Below are positions 750-59,780 of a stretch of 64,000 bases of DNA, piece after piece. The DNA comes from Cyanidioschyzon merolae. Taxonomy: Eukaryota. A program made the translations under genes and the position numbers. Each line of letters starts with the position of its first letter. The stretch's first letter is position 1. The DNA lies in NCBI GenBank assembly GCA_000091205.1, contig AP006502.2. One strand, given 5' to 3'. The notes beneath the pieces were generated by a model. The model saw only the letters and a program-made list of their open reading frames with translations. It had not been told where the DNA came from and made no database searches.

Positions 750-974
750 ACAAGAGTGAACTTTATTGGACAACCTCTCAAAGTCGAACTATATGAGAAA
801 AAGTTGGAAGCAGTAGTGGGTGGCCGCTCCAAAAAGACGGGAAGGCGTCTGCACCTCAGTTGAAGACTTCTTGTCGAGAGCGGGTTTCTCGCCACTACTG
901 TACACCGTTGGCGTCGTTCGACTTTCGAACGGCGTTGATGGTGCCACTATTCTGCCGTGTGTCATTCTGAGTGC

Positions 975-2636
975 TCAGCGAATCGCGTCGTTCTTATCAC
1001 TGGTCTCCGTTTTGAGGGTTTCGTCAATGCTGAGAATCGTGCATGCAGCCTCCGTTGCCGAAGCAAATGCATTGGCACGAATCAGGACCGGTTCCCAGAC
1101 ATAGTTCTGCCAGCAGTCTTGCGGTTCACCGGTTTCCAGGTTTGCTCCGAACCAGAGATTCTCGTCGCTGGTCGCGTGTTTTGCCCGTAGTTTGTTGAGG
1201 AGGTCAGTGGCGTCAAAACCAGCATTCTCACAGAGTGTGCGGGGTATGGTCTCGAGTGCTTTGCCGTAAGCCGCGAGCAAGAGCTGCGCTTTGCCCTGGA
1301 TATGCCTAGATCGCTCCCGCAGAAACTTGCTGAGCTCCATTTCGACAGCGCCGCCACCAGCCACCAGCTCGGGGTACTTGAGCGTACGTCTGACAATCAT
1401 GATGGCGTCGTGTAGGGAACGCTCGGTTTCATCGAGGAATTGCTCGGATCCGCCGCGGAGTAAAATGGTGGCCGACCGAGCCTCCTTGCATCCAGTGAAA
1501 AAGTTAAAGCGCTCCGCTCCGACCTGCCGCTCTTCGAACCACTCACAGGTACCCAGAGCCTCTTCCACTCGCATATCGTGAACAGTGGTCTGAACGCGGG
1601 CACCGACCGCTCGCGCCACCCGCTGCAGATCGGCATCGGGAACACGACCAGCACAGAAAACTCCGCGATCAGCGAAGTACTGCGTCGCGAGATCGCCAAT
1701 TGCCAGCCGGGAGAGCACAACACGAGCTCCAGTGGCCACTATTTTCTCAAGTTTCTCGTAGATGATATTCCACTCCGCGTCCACGATTTGCTGGTAAGCA
1801 GCAGCGGATTGCACCCGCACCTCCGCATTCTCCTTCTCGGACTTGAGTTCCAGTTCTAAGTTTAACAGCAGAATCTTGGGTTGATGTATCTTCTTCGGCT
1901 GCTGCTCAAAGCCGGCATAGCTGAACGTCTTCTTGAAGCCGACACCCGCGACGAGGCACGAGTCCGTCACACTGCCACCATTGACCTTTTTCACGCCGAT
2001 CATGTCCAGGTCCAGATCATCATCCAGGGCGAGGACTGCATCAACAGCTATACCTGCGAAAAATTCACGGTATTGCGCGATGAGCTTGCTGTTGAGCGCC
2101 GTCCCCGCACAGCGCTGTAGCAGGGCGCGAGCGGCCTCACGTTCTTCTGTGGAAACGCGTTCGGGATCGGCGCGCAGGACCTTCAGTTGACCGCTCACAT
2201 CGACCGCGATCTGCTTCAAGCGCTCCGAGATCATGCGGTGTGCCTCGCGATAAGCGTAGATGATAACGCGTGGGTGCACGCCGTCCTCGAGAAAGCCCTT
2301 CGCCTGACGCAGCAGCTCGCCTGCCAGCAGCACTACCGACGTGGTACCGTCACCGACTTCCTCGTCTTGAGACTTGGCGATGTCAGCTAGCAAACGAGCC
2401 GCAGGATGCACAACTTCGAGCACTCGAAGGATCGTCGCGCCGTCATTCGATATAGTGACCTTGCCGTCGCTCCCCTGGATGAGTTTATCCATGCCTCGCG
2501 GGCCCAGTGTGCTGTGCAACACCTCTACAACCTGCTCGCAGGCGTTGATGTTGGATATGATCTGCCCGATACCTTGTGAAGCGTCCACGTCATCTTTGAG
2601 GATAATGATCGGAGGATAACCAGAAACCTGCGCCAT
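975..2636 (-). CDS. CCT7: T-complex protein 1 subunit eta (CCT7, group II chaperonin). The ORF runs on to 2771, but the conserved start is [16 protein letters not shown] at 2636.
   Basis: 598-aa ORF with [13 protein letters not shown] and the equatorial/apical domain motifs. It aligns near full length to CCT eta (e.g. [16 protein letters not shown] and [11 protein letters not shown] equivalents). Confidence 0.9.
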
Positions 2637-7390: not shown

Positions 7391-9462
7391 GAAAGAGGGC
7401 GCTCAGACACTGGCGGTCGTTCGAGCGGACGTGCAGTCTGGGACTATGCACGGCAACGCTCGTAGGTGACAGCGGTGCAGCGTGTGACTCGCCTTTGCGT
7501 CGTTTGATTCGGAGCTAGAATGTTTGCGTGTGGGTGCCAAGTTGTGCGAAAGATCCGATCACGTCCTCAGATATCGAATACGACACTTGCTGGCGTTCTG
7601 CAGCGTAACCGCACGCTCGGTGCTGGCGCAGCAGCCGACGCTTCTAGCGGTGGCGCACCAGCCACGGGTCGCTGCCAGGCGGAGGCGGGCCCCCATCGCC
7701 AGGGAGAGCGAGTCCACATAAGCTCGATTTTGTCTATAATGTTATGTTTGTTCAGGTTCTAATCTGATCTGCATGCACAATGGAGTGCTGAGCTGCACGC
7801 TCCATGCATGCCTGGCGATGTAGTTCCGAACGCTTCTAGGTGTCCAGCATCGAGAGCCCAGGTACAGCAATGGGGGATCACGGATTCCTTCGTACTTCTA
7901 GGATGATCGGTGGTCTGGTCGCGGGGGTCTCTTCGACGCCCGGCTGCTGGATTTCCTGGCGTCACCGATATCAAGATGCTTCACGACGCTTTCGTACGTG
8001 TGTTCGTCAACCAACCGATACAGTGACACCATGATACAGTTCATTCGCACGTATCTCGACTCTTCTCCATTTCTGACATGCAGTATGTTTAAATCACGAA
8101 ATCTCTACATGATCGATCTTATCTTTTGGGGCTCAAGACAACTCGTGTGCGCACTGCGAGTCGTTCAGCGGGGCCCGCAACGCGAGAAACCCCGACGTGT
8201 CGTCCTCTGACGCATTGTTCACGAGCGCTTGCTGAACGTCCACTGGCCTTGTCACGTCAAATGATCGATTGATTTCGGGAAACAAATCCTCCTTTCGTGA
8301 TGACCAATGAAGAACCGACATTCAGTACCAGCGTGATGCTTCTCAGGGCGCGATGGTGCTGCTGGTGCTGGTGCTGCTGCCAGAAGCGCTCGTCTCTCCT
8401 GTTTTCGCATGGAAAAGGGTACTGGACGCGGACTGGGGTCATCGCAGCACTCGGTACCAGTAGGGCATGCGCCACCGCTACGTACGAGACAAGCGTCCAC
8501 GGATCGGAGTCTATCGGCTTGTTCTTCGGTTTGAACGTACGTTTCTGTACACGTTTCATGGCGGACTAGACCGCATTCCATAACTCCTCCGCCGAATGGA
8601 ACAGCGTGTGCTTGCACCCACAGCCGACAGAATACTCGCTGAGGATATCGCTCAGCTGAAGCGCATGATCCCAGTGTAACGTACGGGGCTCGGGAACGGA
8701 AGCGAGCGCCTCGCTGGCTGTTTCCAGTATGCGTCAAGGGCATCCACCGAGTGATGCCGCGAGCGTTCACGCGCTGCAGGACAGCTCGCGGGGGCAGCGT
8801 TGTCGAGGACGTATTCGATCACCTGCTGACCACAGCCGAGTGTCACTGGTGTGAAGGACGCACTCAGCTTGTGTACGAAGAAGACATGGGAACTGTGACT
8901 TGCGTCTATGCATGCAATACGTGAAAAACTGCAGGACGCTGTGAACTCGGGACTTGAGCGCTACCGTCATCACCCCTTGACTGCTGAAAACGATTTTAGA
9001 GGACAAGAGACGTCCAAGGTATCGCAATCCGCTCGTAAGAGAACGGTGAAGAATCTATTTACAGAGCAAATCCCTCAAATACCTATATTGTCCACAATCG
9101 AAAATCGCGATCCTTTATTGTACACGTCCTTGTTACTCAGTTGCACTTGTTTCGTGCGCCCACCCCGCCGCCCCGCAAACTCCAGGTCACCCCAAAGCAC
9201 CCACACATACGACTACAAAGCCTTGCATTAGCCCCCCAGCCTCGTGTTCTCGATGCATCGCGCGTGCGGTCTGCGGCGCGCCGCGTTGCAACGGCTCTCG
9301 CTGCGACGCATCCTCCATTGCAACGCTGCTCAGCTCCCGTACGCTTCTTCGACGCGTATAGGGACCAGGTTTGCACTAGGACTCGTTCCTCGCTAGCCTG
9401 GATAGGGCAGCGGAAACTGAAAGGGTTTCAGCCTCTCGCTTGAAAGACGAGTCATTACGATC

Positions 9463-12024
9463 GTGCTGATGCCTTTAGCGGCCTTGGGGCAACGCGCAGC
9501 GCTTTTCGCAACTTCAGCAACGACGACACGTAGTCTGTTGGGCAGGTTACGGGAGTCGGGTCCGCAGGATCATCGTTTCGTTTCCACGAGCACACGCTTG
9601 GTCCACCAGTCATCGCAAACGTTCGGTGCAAGGCGGGCTACTTTGCAGCAGCTCGCTCTATTCAAGGCGGTCGGCACTGGGGGGTCGTACGGCGTCCCTG
9701 GCGGCAAGCAGACGCTGAAACGGCAGCTGCACGCGTCCACACCCATGGCCAAGGTGCCGCTTTCACGCTATGAACCGGATACGAGTCTCGAAGAGGTCTA
9801 TGAGCGCATTCGCCAGAATGTCGCGGTGGTTCGGAAACGTCTCGATCGGCCGCTTACGTTGGCGGAGAAGATCCTGTACGGACACCTGTCGAATCCGGAA
9901 ACAGCAGAGCTCGTTCGCGGCAAGTCCTATTTACACTTGCATCCGGATAGAGTGGCGATGCAGGATGCAACAGCACAAATGGCAACGCTGCAGTTCATGT
10001 CGGCGGGGATTTCGCGCACCCAGGCACCAACCACCATCCATTGCGATCATTTGATTACCGCCCAGAGTGGGGCCAAGGAGGATCTCGAACGAGCAGTTCA
10101 GCAGAATCGTGAAGTGTACGACTTTCTGTCAACAGCGGCCGCCAAGTATGGCATGGGTTTTTGGAAACCGGGTTCTGGTATCATTCATCAGATCATACTG
10201 GAGAACTATGCTTTCCCGGGCGGGCTTATGATCGGTACCGACTCGCACACGCCGAATGCCGGCGGTTTAGGGATGGCGGCTATCGGTGTCGGGGGCGCCG
10301 ACGCTGTGGACGTTATGGTTGGGCTCCCGTGGGAACTCAAGGCACCGCGGGTCATCGGCGTGCGCCTCACTGGCAAACTCCACGACTGGACTGCTCCGAA
10401 AGACGTTATTCTCAAGGTTGCGGGAATCCTTACGGTCAAGGGCGGCACCGGCAGCATCATCGAATACTTTGGCCCCGGTGTCGATTCGATTTCCTGCACG
10501 GGCATGGGTACCATATGCAACATGGGTGCCGAAATCGGTGCGACAACCTCGATTTTTCCCTACAGCAAAAGAATGGAGGCGTATCTGAAAGCCACTCGTC
10601 GTGACGCGATCGCGGAACTGGCCAACAAGTACGTCGACCTGCTGCGCGCCGACGAGAACGCAGTCTACGATCGTCTGATAGAAATCAACCTGAGCGAGTT
10701 GGAGCCGCATGTGAACGGTCCCTTCACACCCGACTTGGCGCATCCGTTGAGCAAGCTCAAGGACGCTGTCAAGCAAAACGATTGGCCTGCTGAGATCCGG
10801 GTCAGCCTGATAGGCTCGTGCACCAACTCATCCTATGAGGACATGATGCGAGCGGCTTCGGTCTGCAAGCAGGCAATCGATCACGGTGTCAAGGCGAAGA
10901 CGATTTTCCATATCACTCCGGGCTCAGAGCAAGTTCGTTCGACGATTGAGCGCGACGGTATGATACAGCTGTTTGAAGCGATCGGTGGTGTTGTTCTCGC
11001 GAATGCATGCGGGCCCTGTATCGGCCAATGGAATCGACAGGATGTACCAAAGGGCGTCAAAAACACCATTATCACTTCGTATAATCGCAACTTTGCGCAG
11101 CGCAATGACGGGAATCCGCTTACACATGCGTTCATGGCGAGCCCGGAAATCGTGACTGCGTTTGCGCTCTCCGGACGACTCGATTTCAATCCGGTTACGG
11201 ATGTGCTGACGGATCAGTCAGGAAAGCCGTTCAAACTGCAGAGTCCAAGCGGGGATGAGTTGCCGGCTCGCGGCTTTGACCCCGGACGGGACACGTTCCA
11301 GGCACCTCCGGGGGACGGCTCGAGCGTCGCTGTTCGCATTGATCCGCAAAGCGAACGGTTGCAACAGCTGGAAGCGTTCCCGGCTTGGAACGGCAAAGAT
11401 ATCGAACGGGCGTTCATTCTCCTCAAGGTCAAGGGCAAGTGCACCACGGATCATATCTCCATGGCGGGGCCGTGGCTCAAATACCGCGGCCATCTGGACA
11501 ACATTTCGAACAATCTCTTCATTGGAGCTATCAATGCGGAAAACGGCAAAGCGAACCTCGTGAAGAACCAACTCAACGGTGAGTATGGCCCGGTGCCCGC
11601 AACTGCTCGGGCCTACAAGCAAGCCGGCATTCCGTGGGTCGTGGTCGGCGACGAAAACTACGGCGAGGGGAGCTCGCGGGAGCACGCCGCCCTGGAGCCC
11701 CGCTATCTCGGTGGAGTCGCGATCATCGCGAAAAGCTTTGCACGTATCCATGAGACCAACCTGAAGAAACAGGGTATGCTGCCGCTTACGTTCCAGGACC
11801 CCGCGGACTATGACAAGATCGACCCTTCTGATCGGGTCAGTATCCTCGGACTGACCAAGTTCCGTCCAGATGAACCGTTAACGTTACGCGTTGAAAAGGC
11901 GGATGGGTCGCAGCTTGAGCTCAAAGTCAACCATTCGTTCAACGAGGCTCAGATCGAATGGTTCCGTCACGGTAGCGCCTTGAACAAGATTCGGGCGGAC
12001 CTGGTAGCAGCCGGCAAAGCCTGA
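9463..12024 (+). CDS. ACO: Aconitate hydratase, mitochondrial type, with an N-terminal presequence.
   Basis: 853 aa. The stretch [40 protein letters not shown] and the rest of the protein are collinear with mitochondrial aconitase. The N-terminus is R/S/T-rich. Confidence 0.92.
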
Positions 12025-40232: not shown

Positions 40233-42494
40233 ATGAAACAATTCGCATTCGTGGAGCACGCTGCTTTCGTTTACCCGGCGCTTCGACACACTCCGCGTCC
40301 AGAGAAGACTTGGAGTGCTTCACTCGCGTGCGGTGCGATCCCAGGGAACACTGGTCAGGTTCCAGGCTCTCGGTTGTTGCCGCGCTGGAGACACCGTGGC
40401 CTCGGTCTGACAACCGGCGTACACAAACGCACTGCCAAATACCGATCTCACAGGGGTACAAGCTCCCTGCACTCCGCTCAAGAGAATGCGAACTCGGCAA
40501 AGCCACTAGAGCCCGTGAGCGAGCACCGGCCGCTGCGCATCATTTTGGCTGGCCCGCCGGCTTCTGGAAAGGGTACCCAAGCTGCTCTTTTAGTTGAACG
40601 GTATGGTCTCGTACATATATCTACAGGGGATATGCTTCGGGCTGCCGTCGAAGCGGGCAGTGAGCTGGGCCTCGCTGCCAAAAAGTACATGGACGCGGGG
40701 GAGCTTGTCCCCGACGAGCTTGTCATAGGGCTCATGCAACAGCGCATGGCTGCGCCTGATGTGCAGACAAGTGGTTGGCTCCTGGACGGCTTTCCTCGAA
40801 CCGCTGCGCAGATTGTAGCTATGGATGCGGCGGGTATCGAACCTGACCTGGTGATCAGCTTGGATGTGCCCTTCGAGATCCTCAAGGAGAGGGTCTCCGG
40901 TCGCCGGCTGGATCCGGAAACTGGTCGGATTTATCACCTGCGTTTCGATCCACCGCCAGCGTCGGACAAAGCCCTTTTAGATCGTCTCATCCAGCGTTCA
41001 GATGATGATGTGCAAAAGCTTGCCGTGAGGTTTGAGAACTACCGGGAGAACGTGGATGCGCTAAGGCAACGATATGGCGCGATTATGGCGGAGATCGACG
41101 GGCGTCGCTCAAAAGAGCAAGTCTTCGAAAATATTACCCGTGCAGTTGGCATGCTACGAATGCGACGTAGCTGGCAGATGAAGCGCTCGAGGCCGCCAAG
41201 AATCATCCTCCTTGGACCACCGTTATCGGGAGTGGAAAAGTACGCCGCGAGGCTCTGTAAAGATCTCGGCTGTATCCGCATCTCTACGGAACAAGTCATT
41301 CGAGATGCAGCAGCAGCAGAGCAGACGAGAACGGGTCTCATGATCCGGCAGCATTTGGAGAATAACGAGTTGGTGCCGGATCATCTGGTCGCTCATGTGC
41401 TTGGGAAGCGCCTCGCCGCCGCAGATGTGGAGCAACACGGATGGCTGCTCGACGATGTGCCGCGACGTATCATGAAAGCCAGTTCGCTACTGGATGCAGG
41501 TATCGAACCTGATCTCGTTTTGTTGCTCTATTTACCACATGAAGATCTGGAAGAACGAATGGTTCAACGTCTCTGGGACCCGGAAACCGGTCGCTACTTC
41601 CATGAGAAATATGATCCGCCCTCAGCAGATGATGCAGCCCTCAGAGCGCGATTGATTCACCGCACCGATGAGGATGAGAATCTGGCGCGATGGTTACTCG
41701 GAACGTACTACGTCGTAGAGTCAGAGCTTGAGGCTCAATACGCCGGTAGAATTGTTCAGATCGATGGGCTTGCCCCCGACGAGGAAATTTACAAGCAAAT
41801 GACAGCGGCAATAGAAGCGCGAGGGATTCCTCTGCTGTCCGACTTGACACGCGCCACCTTCGAGGACCTGGAACTCGGGAGTGCATTCATGGTGCTCTAC
41901 CGTGATCCCAAGCCCGCCACAATCCATGAAGTCCGTTGGCGAGGCAAAGGCGCATGGCCAGACCTTTTTACACGGCCACTGCTTGCGATTGGTGATCTGA
42001 TTGCGCTCTTGGTTGCGAGTAGCGTGTTGCGTCTGCTTTATGGCGGCAGACTCATCTTGGATGCGATCGTTTGGAAAACAGCTGCACCGTTTATCATTGT
42101 GTGGATCGTTGGCGCCCCGTACATAGACGCTTTCACGCAGAATGCCCTTCGAGATCGCCGGGAAGCTTTGCTATCTCTATTTCGAGCCTGGCGAGTCTGC
42201 ATGCCCTTTGCGGTCTTTGTTCGAGCGCAGTCCATGGGCTTCGCGCCACCTCTACATTTCATCGTCGCGTTGCTTCTGCTCACCTACGTATTCTTGGCTC
42301 TGTGGCGTCTCTGTTATGTCATTTTTCTACAGGGCGAGTATGATTCAGAGGGTAATAGGACGCTGAGCCTTCGGGATTTGGGGCCATGGCGTCGACCAGT
42401 CGACAGGGGGGCGCCCTATCCCGGCAGCGTTCGTTCCCAGACGCCTCCGTTGACCGACTCTTCATTGTTTCGCGAAACTCTAGGACCAACGTGA
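40233..42494 (+). CDS. Tandem adenylate-kinase protein. AK domain 1 is canonical, AK domain 2 has a degenerate P-loop, and the C-terminal domain is hydrophobic (3-4 predicted TM helices). An N-terminal presequence is possible.
   Basis: Domain 1: ILAGPPASGKGTQAALLVERYGLVHISTGDMLRAAV...GWLLDGFPRTAAQ plus a LID region. Domain 2: IILLGPPLSGVEKYAARL...GWLLDDVPRRIMKA, with P-loop K and G lost. The C-terminus has LLAIGDLIALLVASSVL, FIIVWIVGAPYI and HFIVALLLLTYVFLALWRL. Confidence 0.8.
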   Translation: MKQFAFVEHAAFVYPALRHTPRPEKTWSASLACGAIPGNTGQVPGSRLLPRWRHRGLGLTTGVHKRTAKYRSHRGTSSLHSAQENANSAKPLEPVSEHRPLRIILAGPPASGKGTQAALLVERYGLVHISTGDMLRAAVEAGSELGLAAKKYMDAGELVPDELVIGLMQQRMAAPDVQTSGWLLDGFPRTAAQIVAMDAAGIEPDLVISLDVPFEILKERVSGRRLDPETGRIYHLRFDPPPASDKALLDRLIQRSDDDVQKLAVRFENYRENVDALRQRYGAIMAEIDGRRSKEQVFENITRAVGMLRMRRSWQMKRSRPPRIILLGPPLSGVEKYAARLCKDLGCIRISTEQVIRDAAAAEQTRTGLMIRQHLENNELVPDHLVAHVLGKRLAAADVEQHGWLLDDVPRRIMKASSLLDAGIEPDLVLLLYLPHEDLEERMVQRLWDPETGRYFHEKYDPPSADDAALRARLIHRTDEDENLARWLLGTYYVVESELEAQYAGRIVQIDGLAPDEEIYKQMTAAIEARGIPLLSDLTRATFEDLELGSAFMVLYRDPKPATIHEVRWRGKGAWPDLFTRPLLAIGDLIALLVASSVLRLLYGGRLILDAIVWKTAAPFIIVWIVGAPYIDAFTQNALRDRREALLSLFRAWRVCMPFAVFVRAQSMGFAPPLHFIVALLLLTYVFLALWRLCYVIFLQGEYDSEGNRTLSLRDLGPWRRPVDRGAPYPGSVRSQTPPLTDSSLFRETLGPT

Positions 42495-52292: not shown

Positions 52293-55200
52293 TTGAACGT
52301 CGCGCGTTCCATGACGCTTTCTCTGGAGTGCTTGGGGGTGCACCTGCCTTGCGAGAGCGTAGAGGTAGCGTTGGTTGCACCGGCGGGCCCTTGCCACTGT
52401 TGGGTGAGCACTAATCGAGAGACCGTGCAGCAATGGTACCGGGAGTCGGCTGAGGGTCTAGATCGTTCATCAACGGGTTCAGAAAGCCCTGTTGGCGTGC
52501 AGAACAAAGACCGAAGCGTTTGGCGGATCGTGGCTGAGTTCCGCGCTCCTGGCAGAGTCGCCTTTCTAGTACACCTGGGCAAACACGGTCTGCTTGCTCA
52601 GACGGCAGACTGCAAGTTCTTGTTCGTGGCTGGTCACTGGCGCAGCGTGAAACTCCCAACATGGAACGAACGCATAACCGCTGTCACAGTGGTCTCAGGG
52701 AGTCTCCGTTCACTGGCGGATGAGCCGGAGAGTCGCACGTCGCCTACCAGGTTTGAGCGAACGCCCCAGGCCTCTACGTCTTCGTTGCACCTTTTGCTTG
52801 GTACGGCGCAGGGAACGCTGTATAGCTGTTTGGTGCCGCAGTTTAAGATGACTGCCATCTGGAGTACAACAACGGCTTGTTCCGGGGCAGAGCCGATCTG
52901 CGGGTTGCGCTATCTGCATGCTGCTCGTACGGGTTCTCCGGGCCACGAGCTTCTGATCCTCAGCACACCAACGAGGTTGTATTACGTCATGGATCCCTTC
53001 TCGGTATCGGAGAGCGCTCGCGAGCGGCTCAACTTGGATCGCTTCATGGAGACGGCGCCGTGTGCATCCGCAGACGCAACGATGACCGCAGCAGGCATGG
53101 TGGAAAGCATCCCGCAGAATAAGATCGGATCCCTCTTTGGGGACTGGAACTGGTTAAGTCGCACCGGTATCTTGCACTTTCAAGTGAATCGCTCGGCGCT
53201 AGCGGCTGGGCAGTTGCCAGTGGTCTGGGAAAAATCCTGGATCGACTTGTCTGGGATTTTCTCTGCATCGAAGGAACCATATGCGGTCTTTGGGGCAGTC
53301 GACATAGAGCCTGGTTGCGTTCTTCTTGGAATCCAAAGTGCTTCTGCCGCCGATGGTGCAGTATTTCCAGCGCAAGGCGAGCGAGCCGTAGTCAGCGACG
53401 ACAATGAACCGTCGCTAGTGACCAGTCTGCAGGAATGTTCGATCACTGAGCACGCTCCGACACCAAGTCGAAACGCTGCACCAGAAGAGTGTTTCGTAGA
53501 GGAGCGTGATTCAGGAGTACGGGTGCTTCCCAGCTCGGAGCGTGGTCACACACGTGGAAGAGATTCTGCATCAGAGGCGTGTACCTCAGATGAGCTGCAC
53601 CCAAACACACGAGCATATAGCGCTTTGGCTTTAGAAAGTGTGACTTCATCGGTGGACCAACTTGATCGCTCTTTAAGCGCAGAGACGGCAGAGATCAGTC
53701 CCGGTGACTGCATGAACATCACTCATGTTGAGCGTTCTTCAGTCTTGCCTTCGGTTCGCGATAGCAACGCCGCATTTGAATCAGAGACCTTCGCATTCAC
53801 GCAAACACCCGCTGCGGATCCACAGCTCCCAGAGGCCGTGTCAGCTGATTCATCGGTATCCTGCGCAGCGTTCGAGCACGCCTTGCCCTCAACGGGGACG
53901 AGGACAGAGCAGGTGTCGCTGGACGCTCGCAGCGAGGCAGCATCAACGGATGTCGACCCGGTGCTTGGATTCATTGCTCTGTACTCCCTGGTAGATGGCC
54001 GTTTGCGCGCTCGCATGGCCGTGCGAAAAGAGCACGGACGACCGCTAGCGCTTCTACCTGGTGGACTGCTCGTGACGAGTCGCGCAACGTACTGTTGTCG
54101 TGTCTCGGGCGACGTACTGAAGGCGGTCCAAGAAGCGTTCGTCGAACGATACCGCCTTGCGGAAGCGCTAGCAAACTGCAAAACGACCGAACAAAAAGAT
54201 GTAGTGTTTCTTCAGTACGCAGAGAAACTTTTCAGTGAACTGGGTGGAATCCACGAGGCAGCCACGGAGGCGGATCTACAAGCACAACGAATCCGCAAGC
54301 AGCAAATTGCTTTCTACCTCGCTCGCTGCCGCTCTTTACAAGTCCAGGATGCACTGAAACGAATGATTGAACATTGCGCTGTCGATGCCGAGATGGTACT
54401 CGCCTACGTCGAGCAACGTGTTCTTGTAGAAGAGGACACGCTCAGTACAGGCGCCCTCGAATCGTTACAAAAGGCGCTCCAAGACTATCGCAGCGGTGCT
54501 GATGCGGAAACGTTTTTATCGCAACCCTGTGTATTACGAGACCAGTCAGCGACGGATGCTATGTACGGGCGCCTCTATCGGCTGATGAAACCGGGCTCCA
54601 CAGCGCAAGTTCAGTTACGAGAGCAGATCTTGCAGCGCGCTCTGGTCTTGCCCCCGATTGCGGAACGAAAGCATGGATCATTTTCAAATAACGAACATGA
54701 GGCGATCAAGTTGCTGCAGTGGGCAGCAGTGCTGCTCGCTGAGCAAGGCAACGAGGCAGATCTGTTCGCCCTTATTCAGAAGCATGCCCCTGCGGTGCAT
54801 GAAGATCGCTCGTTCTCAGGTTTTCTGTTGTGGCTGGTCAACCGATACGGTCTGTGGCACGTGCACATTGAGTTGCTCTTGATGCTGGACAAACAGGTCG
54901 GGTCCGACGCGGGTTATCGTGAGGACGCCTTGGATGTTGCTTTCGAGCATGCCGCAGAAATGGCCCTGGAGGCGAGTCCTCTTCTGGAGCGCCTCCTGGA
55001 TCGGATTTGTGGTGAGGATCGGGCACTCTGGCGCCAAGCGTTGGACCGAGCGCCCGCCTCGTGTCGCACTGCAGTTTGGAGCCGGGCCCTTCTCGAACGC
55101 CGCGTGGTCACGCTTGGTGAAGCGCTCGACGATCGCAGCACCACAAGGACGACTTCGCCCGTGGACTGCCCGTTGCCGGCGCAGGCGCTCAGCCACTTGT

Positions 55201-55688
55201 TTCGTGATATGGAACATTCCCTGGCAATTGAGCAAGCCAAGATACAGGATCTGATTTCAGTCCTCGAGCGCCTGGATCGGGCGCTAGAACACCAGTCTGC
55301 CGTGCGCCATGCAACGGAAGCTGTGTGGCGACGACAGTCCACGAACTGCACGGAATCGACACCTGGTCGAGAAACTCCGCAGACTGCATGGTTCCCTGGC
55401 CACGCTAGATCGCTGCTTCCCGACTGGATGACGCGTTCGCTACAGGCCGACGCGCTTTATGGCGCGAAAGCTGGAGCAAGCAACGCCCCAGCCGAGATGC
55501 AGGCCCGCGCCGCTCTCTGTCGAGTGCGTTCGCGAAACCGGTCGCTATCGAGCGCATGCGTCACCGGCAGCACCAGCGAGGCAACGCAGCAGCCAACCGA
55601 CACAAGTGCATCTGTTGCGACACGTGAACATGATGTTACATGGTTCAGCCCTTTCTGGCTCGAATCCCTGAACGCATCGTACCGCTGA
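52293..55688 (+). CDS. Large Vps18/Pep3-like protein (HOPS/CORVET-type tethering subunit: N-terminal beta-propeller-like region plus alpha-solenoid). No C-terminal RING finger is found in this ORF.
   Basis: LHLLLGTAQGTLYSCLV resembles Vps18 ILVGTAQGHIFEAEL, and LLILSTPTRLYYV resembles FVIATTRQRLFQF. The middle-region pattern DVLKAVQEAFVERYRLAEALANC resembles DVWRTYLDMNRFDLAKEYCRERPDC. Length is 1131 aa. Confidence 0.35.
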   Translation: MNVARSMTLSLECLGVHLPCESVEVALVAPAGPCHCWVSTNRETVQQWYRESAEGLDRSSTGSESPVGVQNKDRSVWRIVAEFRAPGRVAFLVHLGKHGLLAQTADCKFLFVAGHWRSVKLPTWNERITAVTVVSGSLRSLADEPESRTSPTRFERTPQASTSSLHLLLGTAQGTLYSCLVPQFKMTAIWSTTTACSGAEPICGLRYLHAARTGSPGHELLILSTPTRLYYVMDPFSVSESARERLNLDRFMETAPCASADATMTAAGMVESIPQNKIGSLFGDWNWLSRTGILHFQVNRSALAAGQLPVVWEKSWIDLSGIFSASKEPYAVFGAVDIEPGCVLLGIQSASAADGAVFPAQGERAVVSDDNEPSLVTSLQECSITEHAPTPSRNAAPEECFVEERDSGVRVLPSSERGHTRGRDSASEACTSDELHPNTRAYSALALESVTSSVDQLDRSLSAETAEISPGDCMNITHVERSSVLPSVRDSNAAFESETFAFTQTPAADPQLPEAVSADSSVSCAAFEHALPSTGTRTEQVSLDARSEAASTDVDPVLGFIALYSLVDGRLRARMAVRKEHGRPLALLPGGLLVTSRATYCCRVSGDVLKAVQEAFVERYRLAEALANCKTTEQKDVVFLQYAEKLFSELGGIHEAATEADLQAQRIRKQQIAFYLARCRSLQVQDALKRMIEHCAVDAEMVLAYVEQRVLVEEDTLSTGALESLQKALQDYRSGADAETFLSQPCVLRDQSATDAMYGRLYRLMKPGSTAQVQLREQILQRALVLPPIAERKHGSFSNNEHEAIKLLQWAAVLLAEQGNEADLFALIQKHAPAVHEDRSFSGFLLWLVNRYGLWHVHIELLLMLDKQVGSDAGYREDALDVAFEHAAEMALEASPLLERLLDRICGEDRALWRQALDRAPASCRTAVWSRALLERRVVTLGEALDDRSTTRTTSPVDCPLPAQALSHLFRDMEHSLAIEQAKIQDLISVLERLDRALEHQSAVRHATEAVWRRQSTNCTESTPGRETPQTAWFPGHARSLLPDWMTRSLQADALYGAKAGASNAPAEMQARAALCRVRSRNRSLSSACVTGSTSEATQQPTDTSASVATREHDVTWFSPFWLESLNASYR

Positions 55689-55860: not shown

Positions 55861-57096
55861 GTGCTCGATGAAAACGGAAAGCGCGCGTGCTGCTGCGTGC
55901 TGTGCCATGCGTGCGTCGTTGCCCGGCTGAAAGTGCACGCATTTTAGAAACAGAACAAATTTGAACATGGTGAATGTGCACGCGCACGGATCAGGTGCCA
56001 GCGCTATCGCTCATTGATTCGTCGCTGTGTCATGCCGTGTCACGTCGAGGCACTGACAGCACCGCTGGGATGTGTCCACGTTGCAGGATCCGTCTATTTC
56101 TGGTGTACGATCGATGCGTAAAACGAGAATCCAGGGGTATGGAAACGCTGCTGGTAAACAGGACAAGGACCATCGCATCCCCGTAGACGTCTCCGTGTAC
56201 GATGGATCTTCGACTATTCCCTCGGTCGAGATGGCAACTACATGCCTCCAGCGACTTTGAGCGTGGCGCGTCTATCCCAAACGCTTGCTTGGACGCCCGA
56301 TGCGCCGCTGCTGCTGTCGCCTGAGGGATACAGGACGGCCCCGCGGCTCGTTTAGGGACATCGGCTCGCGATTCGGAGTAGTCGGTGCGGAGCAAGCGGC
56401 CTCTCGAGGAAGGATGTCTGCGAGCGCTTCGACGCGAGCGCGCGCTGCCTAGACGAATGCTCCTTTGACGCAGTATATGCACGGGCACCGATTATTACCG
56501 TTGTGGTGCGCAGCGGACAACGAGTGTGGCGAAAATGGCCAGTTTCTGTTTCCGCCCGAGAGCGGCATCCGTGATGTTCGTCTACGCTCGAGCCGGTGCA
56601 TGCCTGGGTCCGCAGCCAGCGACACAGCGCATCGTGCACATATTCAAACCACGAGCGCCGACGAGACCGAGTCTGGTGGAAACCAGCCAGGCGCCACCGA
56701 TGAAGTGGCACCGCGCCTAGTATCGCCGCAAGCGCTGGTCGCATGCGATACACTACTGGCGACGGGTGCCGGTGTGCGTATTCACAACTCGTTCGTGTAA
56801 GCGAAGCTTCCGCCGAATAGCAGAGAATCTGGCGAGGGTTTGTCGAGCAAGCTACTAGATTATCGATCGTGACTGCCCGCAGAAACTTCTGATTCGCCAC
56901 ATGTACGTACGTGGACGTGAGGCACCAGTCATCCACCCGCGAGTCTTGATGATCTGCGTTGAGACGCATATCATGAGACGCTTTTTTCGTGCTTGCGGTG
57001 CGACGTCGGGAAGCCTCGATAGATGCATGCGTTGCGGCAGCAGGGCTCGCCATCACCAGCCCTAGCGCCAGTGACACTTGAAAAACACTCTTCACT

Positions 57097-58053
57097 CTAC
57101 ACTTGTCTACTGCAAACGTTCTGTACCGACGGGTCCAACTTGTCCGCATCCACTTCCTCATCGCATGTTGTCGAGCCGGGCGCCGGTGCTGTCTCCACCA
57201 AATCACTTGTCTTGTGCAGCCTCGCGTTTGCGCTCGAAAACCATTCTCGCGGTCGCATTGATGCCGGCAAGTGCACCAGATCCTGCGCTGTGTCCACGTC
57301 GTTGAGCGTTACCGGTAAACATATCGTCCTGACGCCATCATTGCGCAGAGCTTCGACGGTGCGCGCGCATACATCATTCTGACTGAATACGAGGTGTGGG
57401 CCGAACGCAGCGTAGATGACTCTCGCCCAACGGGTTCGTTCTGCTGCCGCAAATGCTAAACCGAGCAAATAATAACCGCCGTCCTGCGCTGGTCCAATCA
57501 CCGCTCCATGACCGGCATGGAGCGCAGCGAATGCCTGCTGTAGCACCGCGGTATCAAGCGCCGGGCAGTCGCTTCCGATGACCACAACGTGCGCATCCCT
57601 CGATTCGTCTACCAGGCTTGTCACCTCCGTAAACGCTTGGATGAGTCGAGAGCCTAGCGGATCCTGCTTTTGATCACCAGTGCTCTGCACTTTAGAGGCT
57701 TTCTGTGGTGCGATCCGAAACGCCGGGTAACGATGACGAACCGAGTCGTCGAGCCAGCGTTCTACGCACTCCGCCTTCGCCTGCTCGCTCTCCACTGGGG
57801 TATAGTATAGGTGGACGGCGCCTGTTCCTCCAGCTTGCAGATCAAGGCCCTGCAACCAGTCATACGCCGTCGCAAGGGTGTTTTCTACCAGAGCGGCACT
57901 GATGCGCGTCGCAAGTGTCGAACCTATCTCCCGACTCAAACGCTGTTTCGTCAGGCCCGCTATCGGAGGCTTGGTGAAAACGACCAGGTGCAGCTCTTGT
58001 TCCGCACTCCACGTGGAGATTGGCTGCGCATGGTCAACATTTTCCCCTTGCAT
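57097..58053 (-). CDS. DUF2064-family protein (GT-A-like nucleotidyltransferase fold, TIGR04282-type). This is a bacterial/cyanobacterial-type gene.
   Basis: LHLVVFTKPPIAGLTKQRLSREIG...AALVENTL (the N-terminal KxP.xG..KTRL motif) and VVIGSDCPALDTAVLQQAFAAL...AVIGPAQDGGYYLLGL (the DUF2064 hallmark). Confidence 0.7.
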   Translation of the reverse strand: MQGENVDHAQPISTWSAEQELHLVVFTKPPIAGLTKQRLSREIGSTLATRISAALVENTLATAYDWLQGLDLQAGGTGAVHLYYTPVESEQAKAECVERWLDDSVRHRYPAFRIAPQKASKVQSTGDQKQDPLGSRLIQAFTEVTSLVDESRDAHVVVIGSDCPALDTAVLQQAFAALHAGHGAVIGPAQDGGYYLLGLAFAAAERTRWARVIYAAFGPHLVFSQNDVCARTVEALRNDGVRTICLPVTLNDVDTAQDLVHLPASMRPREWFSSANARLHKTSDLVETAPAPGSTTCDEEVDADKLDPSVQNVCSRQV

Positions 58054-58254
58054 ATCGTCATCGACAGCATCAACTCACTCGCTCAGTGCGTCATCCCTAT
58101 AAGCAAACAAGAGCAGCAACAGCAGCAGCAGCAGCACGGCAAGTGCGCCCTCGTTAGCAAGCGACCGGGTACGCAGGCGGCATCGATGGCACCGTGCACC
58201 GGCGTCCGGCAGAGCGCAAGTGCGCGCTGGCCCCGCGCCGCTGCTAGTCGCCTG

Positions 58255-58812
58255 AACATGAACGCGTGTGTGCTCACCAGCGGCAATGCTTTCTCTCCAG
58301 GTGCACGATCGATGAATGGACGCAGATTCCTCGATCATGAACGCGTGTGTGCTCACCAGCGGCAATGCTTTCTCTCCAGGTGCACGATCGATGAATGGAC
58401 GCAGATTCCTCGATCATGAACGCGTGTATGCTCACCAGCGGCAATGCTTTCTCTCCAGGTGCATGAACAATGAATGGACGCAGATTCCTCGATCATGAAC
58501 GCGTGTGTGCTCACCAGCGGCAATGCTTTCTCTCCAGGTGCATGAACAATGAATGGACGCAGATTCCTCGATCATGAACGCGTGTGTGCTCACCAGCGGC
58601 AATGCTTTCTCTCCAGGTGCACGATCGATGAATGGACGCAGATTCCTCGATCATGAACGCGTGTGTGCTCACCAGCGGCAATGCTTTCTCTCCAGGTGCA
58701 CGATCGATGAATGGACGCAGATTCCTCGATCATGAACGCGTGTGTGCTCACCAGCGGCAATGATTTCTCTCCAGGTGCATGAACAATGAATGGACGCAGA
58801 TTCCTCGATAAT
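58255..58812. repeat. 79-bp minisatellite of about 7 tandem copies with two variant units, lying in the divergent intergenic region between the DUF2064 and MGMT genes.
   Basis: Unit acgcgtgtgtgctcaccagcggcaatgctttctctccaggtgcacgatcgatgaatggacgcagattcctcgatcatga recurs at 58262, 58341, 58420, 58499, 58578, 58657 and 58736. The ORF track shows identical 60-aa artefact ORFs repeating. Confidence 0.95.
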
Positions 58813-58991
58813 ATGTGCATGGATAGAGCGTGGGAAGAGACTCCAGCTCATTTATCGGTGCTTGAAGCTTGTCATCGCTGCTCGGCTCCGTAGTCGCCCG
58901 TGTAAGAAAAGCGTGATCGATCTGGGAGCATCTTCGGTGCTGGATGCGTTCCCGCCACCTTTCCCGTACGCAGACAAGAGAGCAACACTGT

Positions 58992-59034
58992 GTCTCTGTT
59001 TCTGTCTCTGTCTCTCTCTGTGTGTGTATGTGTG
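58992..59034. repeat. (CT)n/(GT)n compound dinucleotide microsatellite.
   Basis: ctctgtttctgtctctgtctctctctgtgtgtgtatgtgtgtg seen directly. Confidence 0.8.
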
Positions 59035-59141
59035 TGAACGCTGACTCGAGGACGTTGGCTCCGGAGAGCTGTGTGCTCACTCGGCGCGTCGTCCTGCAAA
59101 ATAAGGGCAGGCGCCAGCACCCGCATGCCGCCTTTGCCCAG

Positions 59142-59780
59142 ATGAACACCGTTGGCGGCTCGAGATATCGGGGCGAGCGTCTTGTTCCTCAGTGCCAACG
59201 CATGGCGAGGTCTACTGGGACCTCTTTTAAGGAGAAACGTAGGCGTTTGGCCTCGGGAAGCGTTCTGTTTTCCAAGTGCTTACGCAAGTCATGTTGCGTT
59301 TGCCTGGACGCGACGCTGTCTGACTTTGAGAAAGCGGTTTATCACGTGGCCGCGAGTATCGAGCCGGGACGTGTCGCGACATACGGCACCATAGCGCAGG
59401 TGATTAAGCCAACGGAAGGCGCGCGAGCTGCTCGAGCCGTTGGCACTGCGTTGCGGAAGAATCCTTACTGGAAAGAGGGCTGCGTTCCTAAAGTTCCTTG
59501 CCACCGTGTCGTAGCGGCAGATCGGACGCTCGGTGGTTACATGGGCGTTAAAGACCCCAAAAGCACGCAGCTGGAGCGGAAACGCTGCATCATGCTTGAA
59601 GAGGGCGTGCCGCTGACGCGAAACAAGCGTGGTCAATGGGTCGTTGTGGAAAACGTCGCTGGAGGCGGCGGCACGAGCGCTGGGCAGCCGCTTCTGAGCC
59701 CCGCAGAGCTGCGCGCAATAGCTGCTACCTTCGCCAGCGCTTCTAGTCTTTCACCTGAAGGGTGTTCGACCCCCAGATGA
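59142..59780 (+). CDS. MGMT: O6-methylguanine-DNA methyltransferase (MGMT/Ogt), short form. Only the C-terminal DNA-binding/active-site domain is recognisable. The start is either ATG 59142 or ATG 59202.
   Basis: DFEKAVYHVAASIEPGRVATYGTIA...AVGTALRKNP...VPCHRVVAADRTLGGY contains the HTH, the Asn hinge and the PCHRV active-site cysteine motif. Confidence 0.75.
   Translation: MNTVGGSRYRGERLVPQCQRMARSTGTSFKEKRRRLASGSVLFSKCLRKSCCVCLDATLSDFEKAVYHVAASIEPGRVATYGTIAQVIKPTEGARAARAVGTALRKNPYWKEGCVPKVPCHRVVAADRTLGGYMGVKDPKSTQLERKRCIMLEEGVPLTRNKRGQWVVVENVAGGGGTSAGQPLLSPAELRAIAATFASASSLSPEGCSTPR

Follow-up and report, generated by a model that had tools for sequence, protein, structure and literature searches.

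Positions 57097 to 58053 of the window, the 64,000-nucleotide stretch of Cyanidioschyzon merolae DNA that was analyzed, are read here as a functional nuclear gene of the Cyanidiophyceae that is of bacterial ancestry, has long been resident in its host, and encodes a probably cytosolic, divergent DUF2064/TIGR04282-like nucleotide transferase of the MobA/CofC-like (GT-A-like) type. This reading as a whole is assigned a probability of roughly 70%. The coding sequence, the motifs within it, and the nearest flanking open reading frames (ORFs) are located as follows.

57097 to 58053, minus strand: DUF2064/TIGR04282-like coding sequence, complete and intronless, with an ATG start, 318 codons, and a TAG stop
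58075 to 58077, minus strand: in-frame TGA, the eighth codon upstream of the ATG, with seven sense codons between
57937 to 57984, minus strand: N-terminal loop VVFTKPPIAGLTKQRL, residues 24 to 39, with F26, G33, K36, R38, and L39 invariant in 19 homologs
57562 to 57582, minus strand: VIGSDCP motif, residues 158 to 164, with invariant D162 aligned to metal-binding D116 of M. tuberculosis FbiD
57457 to 57501, minus strand: VIGPAQDGGYYLLGL motif, residues 185 to 199, a DUF2064 signature, with P188, A189, D191, G192, G193, and Y194 invariant
57280 to 57300, minus strand: DVDTAQD motif, residues 252 to 258, with invariant D252 and D254 aligned to metal-binding D188 and D190 of FbiD
57100 to 57234, minus strand: C-terminal tail, residues 274 to 318, predicted to be disordered (pLDDT, 32 to 46)
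52293 to 55688, plus strand: flanking ORF, Vps18
58944 to 59780, plus strand: flanking ORF, MGMT-type methyltransferase

The 318-amino-acid product was 100% identical to C. merolae 10D protein BAM83487.1 (XP_005539523.1), which is encoded on a 1,621,617-bp record and annotated as "hypothetical protein, conserved." The databases therefore already contain it under a hypothetical-protein entry, and it is a member of a known but uncharacterized enzyme family. UniProt labels it "Glycosyltransferase," and the near-identical metagenomic proteins in its cluster carry the JGI label "GT-A superfamily protein (DUF2064 family)"; the database word "glycosyltransferase" is not established for this protein. 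The original prediction, made from the letters of the window alone, had assigned the ORF to DUF2064 on the basis of two motifs, VVFTKPPIAGLTKQRL near the N terminus and VIGSDCP followed by VIGPAQDGGYYLLGL, both of which are present. Within them, the GSDxP signature (G160-S-D-C-P164) and the GPAxDGGYYLxG signature (G187-P-A-Q-D-G-G-Y-Y-L-L-G198) were recovered, with key residues that were invariant in an alignment of 19 diverse algal and bacterial homologs, the set over which all invariant residues were counted. A significant match to the DUF2064 profile had been named beforehand as the test of this assignment, and the match to Pfam family PF09837 was significant (E = 2.2e-22; 79.5 bits, compared with a gathering score of 25.8).

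The best-matching curated model was NCBIfam TIGR04282 (glyco_like_cofC), which is named "arsenosugar biosynthesis glycosyltransferase," was formerly named "rSAM/selenodomain-associated transferase 1," and represents a family whose own function is predicted from gene context. The C. merolae protein has the same motifs and belongs to the same fold family, and it was aligned over the full length of the model (residues 23 to 259 against profile positions 1 to 189 of 189; E = 5.9e-34), but its score of 117.5 bits was below the curated cutoff of 134 bits. The scores of four other Cyanidiales orthologs (110 to 121 bits) were also below this cutoff, whereas mesophilic red-algal and cyanobacterial controls were above it (173 to 225 bits), and the red-algal homologs among these controls (173 to 201 bits) are bona fide members. 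The Cyanidiales proteins further differ from the model in being longer by approximately 45 internal residues and by a tail of 45 to 60 residues. The cutoffs of the CofC/FbiD families were likewise missed by the C. merolae protein (PF01983, 14.4 versus 22 bits; TIGR03552, 28.5 versus 105 bits). As had been predicted, the protein is longer than typical DUF2064 proteins, with its bacterial relatives being mostly about 195 to 230 amino acids in length. The extra length is accounted for by internal insertions (approximately residues 85 to 131 and 200 to 212) and by the disordered tail, which was poorly conserved even within Cyanidiales and was missing in bacterial and other red-algal homologs.

The AlphaFold model of the protein (pLDDT, 76.8; pTM, 0.76) was confident except in the loop of residues 122 to 128 and in the tail. 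Comparison of the model to the PDB with Foldseek returned 98 chains at E ≤ 0.001, and the fold is a Rossmann-like alpha/beta/alpha sandwich of the MobA-like/GT-A type. The top match was PDB entry 3CGX (E = 2e-14), a putative nucleotide-diphospho-sugar transferase (DUF2064) from Desulfovibrio desulfuricans G20 that was deposited as a structural-genomics entry with its activity unassigned. Among solved structures it is the nearest, both in sequence (E = 2.7e-8 with the single protein and 3.2e-49 with the family profile) and in fold (TM score of 0.73 on the target). At 242 residues, however, it is without the insertions and tail of the algal protein, and identity over the Foldseek alignment is 24%. 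The next-closest folds were FbiD (6BWG and 6BWH) and CofC (7P97 and 2I5E), the phosphoenolpyruvate (PEP), 2-phospho-L-lactate, or 3-phosphoglycerate guanylyltransferases of F420 biosynthesis, and these were followed by IspD and KdsB and then by remoter GT-A enzymes. FbiD and CofC share with the C. merolae protein an AKTRL-type N-terminal loop and, as predicted for the latter, a three-aspartate site for two Mg2+ ions, but identities over the Foldseek alignments were 15 to 19%.

The family profile was aligned with FbiD in three segments, namely, the AKTRL loop, the end of the G-D-x-P-A-L strand, and the D-V-D-T-x-x-D-L motif. In FbiD, the PEP phosphate is anchored by two Mg2+ ions bound to D116, D188, and D190 (PMC6450877). 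These residues were aligned to D162, D252, and D254 of the C. merolae protein, all three of which were invariant in the 19 homologs; the alignment of the DVD motif to FbiD was weak by sequence (−1.8 bits) and depends on the structural match. The VVFTKPPIAGLTKQRL loop corresponds to the AKTRL/AKSRL loop of FbiD and CofC and is thus a putative nucleotide- or phosphate-binding loop. By analogy with these enzymes, D162, D252, and D254 would bind two Mg2+ ions, through which the phosphate group of a small substrate would be anchored, and the nucleotide would be bound by the N-terminal loop, of the form F-T-K-x-P-x-x-G-x-x-K-x-R-L. We infer that the protein is a nucleotide-dependent transferase that uses two metal ions and acts on a small substrate, either phosphorylated or ribosyl. 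As part of a small-molecule pathway, it would make or transfer an intermediate that is nucleotide activated or ribosyl.

The original prediction had also noted that the sequence has no N-terminal presequence, and this was borne out by both the DNA and the structure model. Because of the in-frame TGA upstream of the ATG, an N-terminal transit or signal extension is excluded unless an intron is present. In the model, the first beta-strand begins at residue 19, with only about 18 residues ahead of it, so that the transit peptide of a plastid-targeted protein has no space. The C. merolae DUF2064 protein is thus probably cytosolic.

The setting of the gene is that of an ordinary eukaryotic nuclear locus, as had been proposed. 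The flanking genes encode Vps18, an MGMT-type methyltransferase, Hsp70, an RNase T-type exonuclease, a RETICULATA-related protein, and an adenylate kinase/DUF3054 fusion. The order Hsp70-MGMT-DUF2064-Vps18-RNaseT-RETICULATA-ADK was kept in three Cyanidiophyceae lineages with DUF2064 proteins 35 to 52% identical. In addition to that of C. merolae, these were a Cyanidioschyzon-like lineage represented by 118-kb metagenomic contigs (protein P0003, 48 to 52% identical depending on the alignment) and a Cyanidium-like lineage represented by a 74-kb contig (protein P0004, 35 to 37% identical). Among the Cyanidiophyceae proteins, 82 alignment columns were invariant. As judged from this gene order, the gene has occupied the same chromosomal neighborhood since before the split between Cyanidium and Cyanidioschyzon.

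Comparison of base composition and codon usage with the neighboring genes, a check to which the original prediction lent itself, placed the DUF2064 gene within their range on both counts (GC3 of 0.60 versus 0.50 to 0.66 for the neighbors; codon-usage correlation with the pooled neighbors of 0.855 versus 0.65 to 0.93 for the neighbors themselves). This agreement argues for an ancient transfer and, together with the conserved synteny, for an old, ameliorated resident and not a contaminant. Contamination, an assembly artefact, or a functionless, decaying pseudogene relic might be suspected from the Pfam name of the family ("conserved in bacteria") and from the hypothetical-protein annotation, the only one that the product carries. 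Such an origin is nevertheless highly improbable, given that the same eukaryotic genes flank it in three lineages, in assemblies and metagenomes that are independent of one another, that the composition matches that of the host, and that the reading frame is intact, with catalytic-motif residues that were all invariant across lineages otherwise so divergent. Relative to the metagenomic alleles, the gene showed three nucleotide differences (one synonymous and two nonsynonymous), too few for an informative dN/dS ratio.

The family had been described as essentially prokaryotic, and the searches agreed. In a search with the single sequence, orthologs were found only in Cyanidiococcus yangmingshanensis (54% identity), the lineages of P0003 and P0004, and Cyanidium caldarium (36%), below which the matches dropped to bacterial proteins (E of approximately 1e-17; about 33% identity). 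An exhaustive profile search over 1.84 billion representatives returned 15,267 representative matches, among which only three Cyanidiales clusters reached E < 1e-30, with the rest forming a flat gradient from 1.6e-27 downwards. The best named nonalgal matches were to bacteria of many phyla (26 to 36% identity), and named matches outside the red algae were all bacterial.

One of the best matches remaining after those to Cyanidiales was a protein of the mesophilic red alga Compsopogon caeruleus (A0A7S1T617). A profile built around it recovered proteins of Gracilaria domingensis, Gracilariopsis chorda (BWQ96_08683), Agarophyton chilense, and Purpureofilum apyrenoidigerum, as well as approximately 40 further sequences from sequencing-run assemblies. 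No named eukaryotes other than Cyanidiales and these mesophilic red algae had a member of the family. The genes of the latter are likewise nuclear and have no presequence, but the proteins differ from that of C. merolae in being bacterial-like in form (214 to 254 amino acids) and 29 to 35% identical to it, and the genes lie in another neighborhood (Nrap, cyclin, and VDAC). In G. chorda, the neighbors were genes for Nrap, VDAC, a class II aminoacyl-tRNA synthetase (Pfam tRNA-synt_2), and a SNARE, and the order Nrap-DUF2064-cyclin was kept on a contig related to this locus. A short-chain dehydrogenase/reductase (SDR) and a methyltransferase near the Gracilariopsis gene were considered as parts of a cotransferred cluster and rejected, as they showed only generic family similarity to their counterparts in a bacterial ArsS cluster. 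The survey of related algae thus showed that the gene is not peculiar to C. merolae. Among named matches, the eukaryotic members of the family are all red algae, of several classes. No Galdieria-named protein was present among the 120 best matches of either the C. merolae-based or the Compsopogon-based search, which suggests that the gene is missing from Galdieria.

By its sequence relationships, the gene is clearly of bacterial ancestry, and the original alternative of an endosymbiont-derived or a horizontally acquired gene stands insofar as the gene is of bacterial type. The direct cyanobacterial sister that would be the classical endosymbiotic signal is disfavored: in quartet sampling, Cyanidiales grouped with cyanobacteria in 6% of quartets, the least favored arrangement. 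In neighbor-joining trees, the Cyanidiales proteins formed a clade on a long branch (bootstrap, 97 to 98.5%), and the mesophilic red-algal proteins formed a clade of 45 sequences with no known bacteria inside it (bootstrap, 57%); the best-supported sister of the Cyanidiales clade had a bootstrap value of 25% or less. Maximum likelihood (ML) placement was carried out under a Gonnet-derived model with four gamma categories on the fixed neighbor-joining backbone, using a grid and four-parameter optimization. Edges containing only cyanobacteria received zero weight, and two cyanobacteria-rich placements were 27 to 30 lnL units worse, a provisional value from an incompletely optimized run. Scores of the Cyanidiales proteins against group-specific HMMs were 138.5 for the red algae, 119.6 for cyanobacteria, and 155.9 for other bacteria, a comparison that was judged to be biased because the last set had been picked by similarity to the query.

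One acquisition in an ancient red alga and two separate transfers appear about equally likely on these data. It is possible that a single gene, perhaps from the cyanobacterial endosymbiont, entered the red-algal ancestor, was inherited vertically in both red-algal groups, evolved faster in Cyanidiales, and was lost in Galdieria and others. Consistent with this history, the gene was present in nuclear contexts or transcriptomes of named mesophilic red algae from several classes, representatives of the red clade ranked 1st, 7th, and 10th against the Cyanidiales profile among the non-Cyanidiales matches of the 15,267-match list, and 46% of quartets united Cyanidiales with the red clade against cyanobacteria and other bacteria. 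Placement of Cyanidiales on the red-clade stem cost 12.4 ± 14.6 lnL units, which is less than 1 standard deviation and is not rejected, and the smallest mean distance of the red clade was to cyanobacteria (0.608), which also provided most of the next-best named matches to the red-clade profile, including a member of the Gloeomargaritaceae. The two groups were joined with a bootstrap value of only 6.5%, however, and the sister of the red clade shifted between replicates from a Verrucomicrobia protein to cyanobacteria. The scarcity of quartets joining Cyanidiales to cyanobacteria, the lack of common synteny between the Cyanidiales and florideophyte loci, and the TIGR04282 cutoff, failed by one group and passed by the other, also argue against a single acquisition, as does the ML analysis, in which 99% of the likelihood weight fell on noncyanobacterial bacterial branches.

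An equally tentative alternative is that a noncyanobacterial bacterium donated the gene to the common ancestor of Cyanidium and Cyanidioschyzon by a horizontal gene transfer (HGT) separate from the event in mesophilic red algae. The best ML placements, beside an Eisenbacteria metagenome-assembled genome (MAG) and Solidesulfovibrio (summed likelihood weight ratio, 0.94), point to such a transfer, as do the 48% of quartets that paired Cyanidiales with other bacteria and the red clade with cyanobacteria. The absence of Galdieria-named proteins from the best matches is also consistent with it, and approximately 1% of genes in Cyanidiales are known to be HGT derived, according to Rossoni et al. (PMC6629376). 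Against an independent transfer, bacterial identity topped out at 36% along the flat gradient of E values, and the advantage over the red-stem placement was within 1 standard deviation. Moreover, the bacterial loci in the tree had been selected for being the most similar to the C. merolae protein, which biases the result towards a "closest" bacterium, and the long Cyanidiales stem makes long-branch attraction likely. The similarity-selected bacterial set and the long stem both favor artefactual bacterial sisters.

Under either history, the gene is read as an ancient bacterial acquisition whose function may be approached through its bacterial relatives. There, the enzyme would partner a TIGR04283-like GT2 glycosyltransferase and often also the radical-SAM protein ArsS. 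A TIGR04283-like GT2 gene was located within 6 kb, mostly adjacent, in 49 of the 80 closest bacterial loci, and fused DUF2064-GT2 proteins were among the matches listed. The radical-SAM/DUF3641 gene ArsS was nearby in 19 of these 80 loci, with none within 6 kb in the other 61. ArsS adenosylates dimethylarsenite to yield 5′-deoxy-5′-dimethylarsinoyladenosine, the first arsenosugar intermediate (PMC13598754). The arsenosugar name given by NCBI to TIGR04282 stems from the association with GT2 and ArsS genes in bacteria. The literature search found no experiment on any DUF2064 or TIGR04282 protein, so that this name derives from gene neighborhood only. The search also found no text naming DUF2064, no paper joining arsenosugar, ArsS, and glycosyltransferase, and none that dealt with ArsS in a red alga or any other eukaryote; all of the papers that mentioned TIGR04282 were unrelated studies of metagenomes or isolates.

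The leading functional guess for the C. merolae protein, albeit an unlikely one, is a part in arsenosugar-type riboside metabolism. In contrast to the bacterial loci, the Cyanidiales loci have no linked partners; neither the GT2 gene nor ArsS was found by tblastn in the window or in algal loci L001 to L004. With the partners absent from the window, the TIGR04282 cutoff missed, and ArsS not nearby even in most of the bacterial loci, the arsenosugar role is only a lead, and because other red-algal proteins scored above that cutoff, the Cyanidiales enzyme may have changed substrate. The more specific proposal that red-algal DUF2064/TIGR04282 enzymes, including the Cyanidiales form, catalyze an arsenosugar step after ArsS, in which 5′-deoxy-5′-dimethylarsinoyladenosine or ribose would be converted towards the glycerol or phosphate ribosides, is more doubtful still.

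As an ancient bacterial gene retained by a eukaryote and common to related algae, the DUF2064 gene is a fairly ordinary case. It adds one more bacterial-type gene to the foreign-gene complement that is well documented for Cyanidiales (PMC6629376). Like the HGT genes described by Rossoni et al. (2019, eLife; PMC6629376), it is a metabolic gene of bacterial type that has become established in the nucleus of a polyextremophilic red alga and conforms fully to the composition of its host, but the homologs in mesophilic red algae make an acquisition specific to extremophiles less clear. The main text of that study, which reported 96 HGT orthogroups, does not name the gene. What the present survey adds is the restriction of the named eukaryotic members to red algae and the link of the bacterial neighborhoods to GT2 and ArsS. 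Eukaryotic algae hold most environmental arsenosugar, and red algae are major producers, with arsenosugars being abundant in red seaweeds. We know of no description of the arsenosugar steps that follow ArsS. C. merolae inhabits arsenic-rich springs and is genetically tractable, with targeted knockouts being routine. Given the production of arsenosugars by red algae and the gap in the pathway after ArsS, the gene is a cheap, testable candidate in C. merolae. If the link to arsenic fails, the gene remains that of an uncharacterized CofC-like transferase; if a role after ArsS is true, eukaryotic algae would have their first candidate gene for that step, with C. merolae as the test system. The gene is of value mainly in offering a tractable candidate for working out what DUF2064/TIGR04282 enzymes do.

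In the window, the following features overlapped DUF2064 or lay on its 5' side:

56352-57206 (-), 284-aa ORF overlapping the DUF2064 3' end
57023-57382 (+), 119-aa ORF overlapping the DUF2064 3' end
58108-58136, short run of a (CAG/CTG)n-type trinucleotide, repeated about 8 times
58257-58809, head-to-tail tandem repeat, 79-bp unit × 7.0 (TRF score, 1029; 97% matches)
58944-59780 (+), mechanically called MGMT-type methyltransferase ORF, 278 aa

The 79-bp repeat was located in the intergenic stretch that separates the DUF2064 start (58053) from the divergently oriented MGMT gene, and both metagenomic contigs carrying a near-identical DUF2064 allele stopped 95 to 390 bp upstream of the gene, as would be expected if assembly broke at this minisatellite. 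The trinucleotide run preceded the ATG of DUF2064 by about 55 bp and gave poly-Leu or poly-Gln in spurious ORFs. The N-terminus of the MGMT-type ORF extended about 90 residues beyond the 183- to 186-aa orthologs called in related loci, and its DNA_binding_1 domain began at residue 127; the real start in the window is probably an internal Met. The MGMT-DUF2064 interval of the Cyanidium-like contig contained an additional gene that was missing from Cyanidioschyzon-type loci and had no Pfam match:

L004 3302-4165 (-), 287-aa gene

Gene callers also placed 258- to 265-aa ORFs at the DUF2064 3' end in metagenomic alleles L090 and L091. Neither these ORFs nor the 284-aa and 119-aa ORFs matched Pfam, and the overlapping ORFs have probably arisen spuriously because the sequence is GC-rich. 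They were the only annotations in the 1.4-kb gap between DUF2064 and Vps18.

Two enzyme genes were annotated at the DUF2064 locus of Gracilariopsis chorda (L087):

8465-9478 (-), short-chain dehydrogenase, in head-to-head orientation with DUF2064
758-1576 (+), UbiE-type methyltransferase, 9 kb from the DUF2064 gene

Both enzyme classes were also present in one bacterial ArsS cluster (L006). This match is probably coincidental, because pairwise comparison of the respective dehydrogenases and methyltransferases revealed only generic family similarity.

Elsewhere in the window, an adenylate kinase-DUF3054 fusion was predicted:

40233-42494 (+), 753-aa ORF with two adenylate kinase domains and a C-terminal DUF3054 membrane domain

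This fusion was retained in all three of the Cyanidiophyceae lineages examined.
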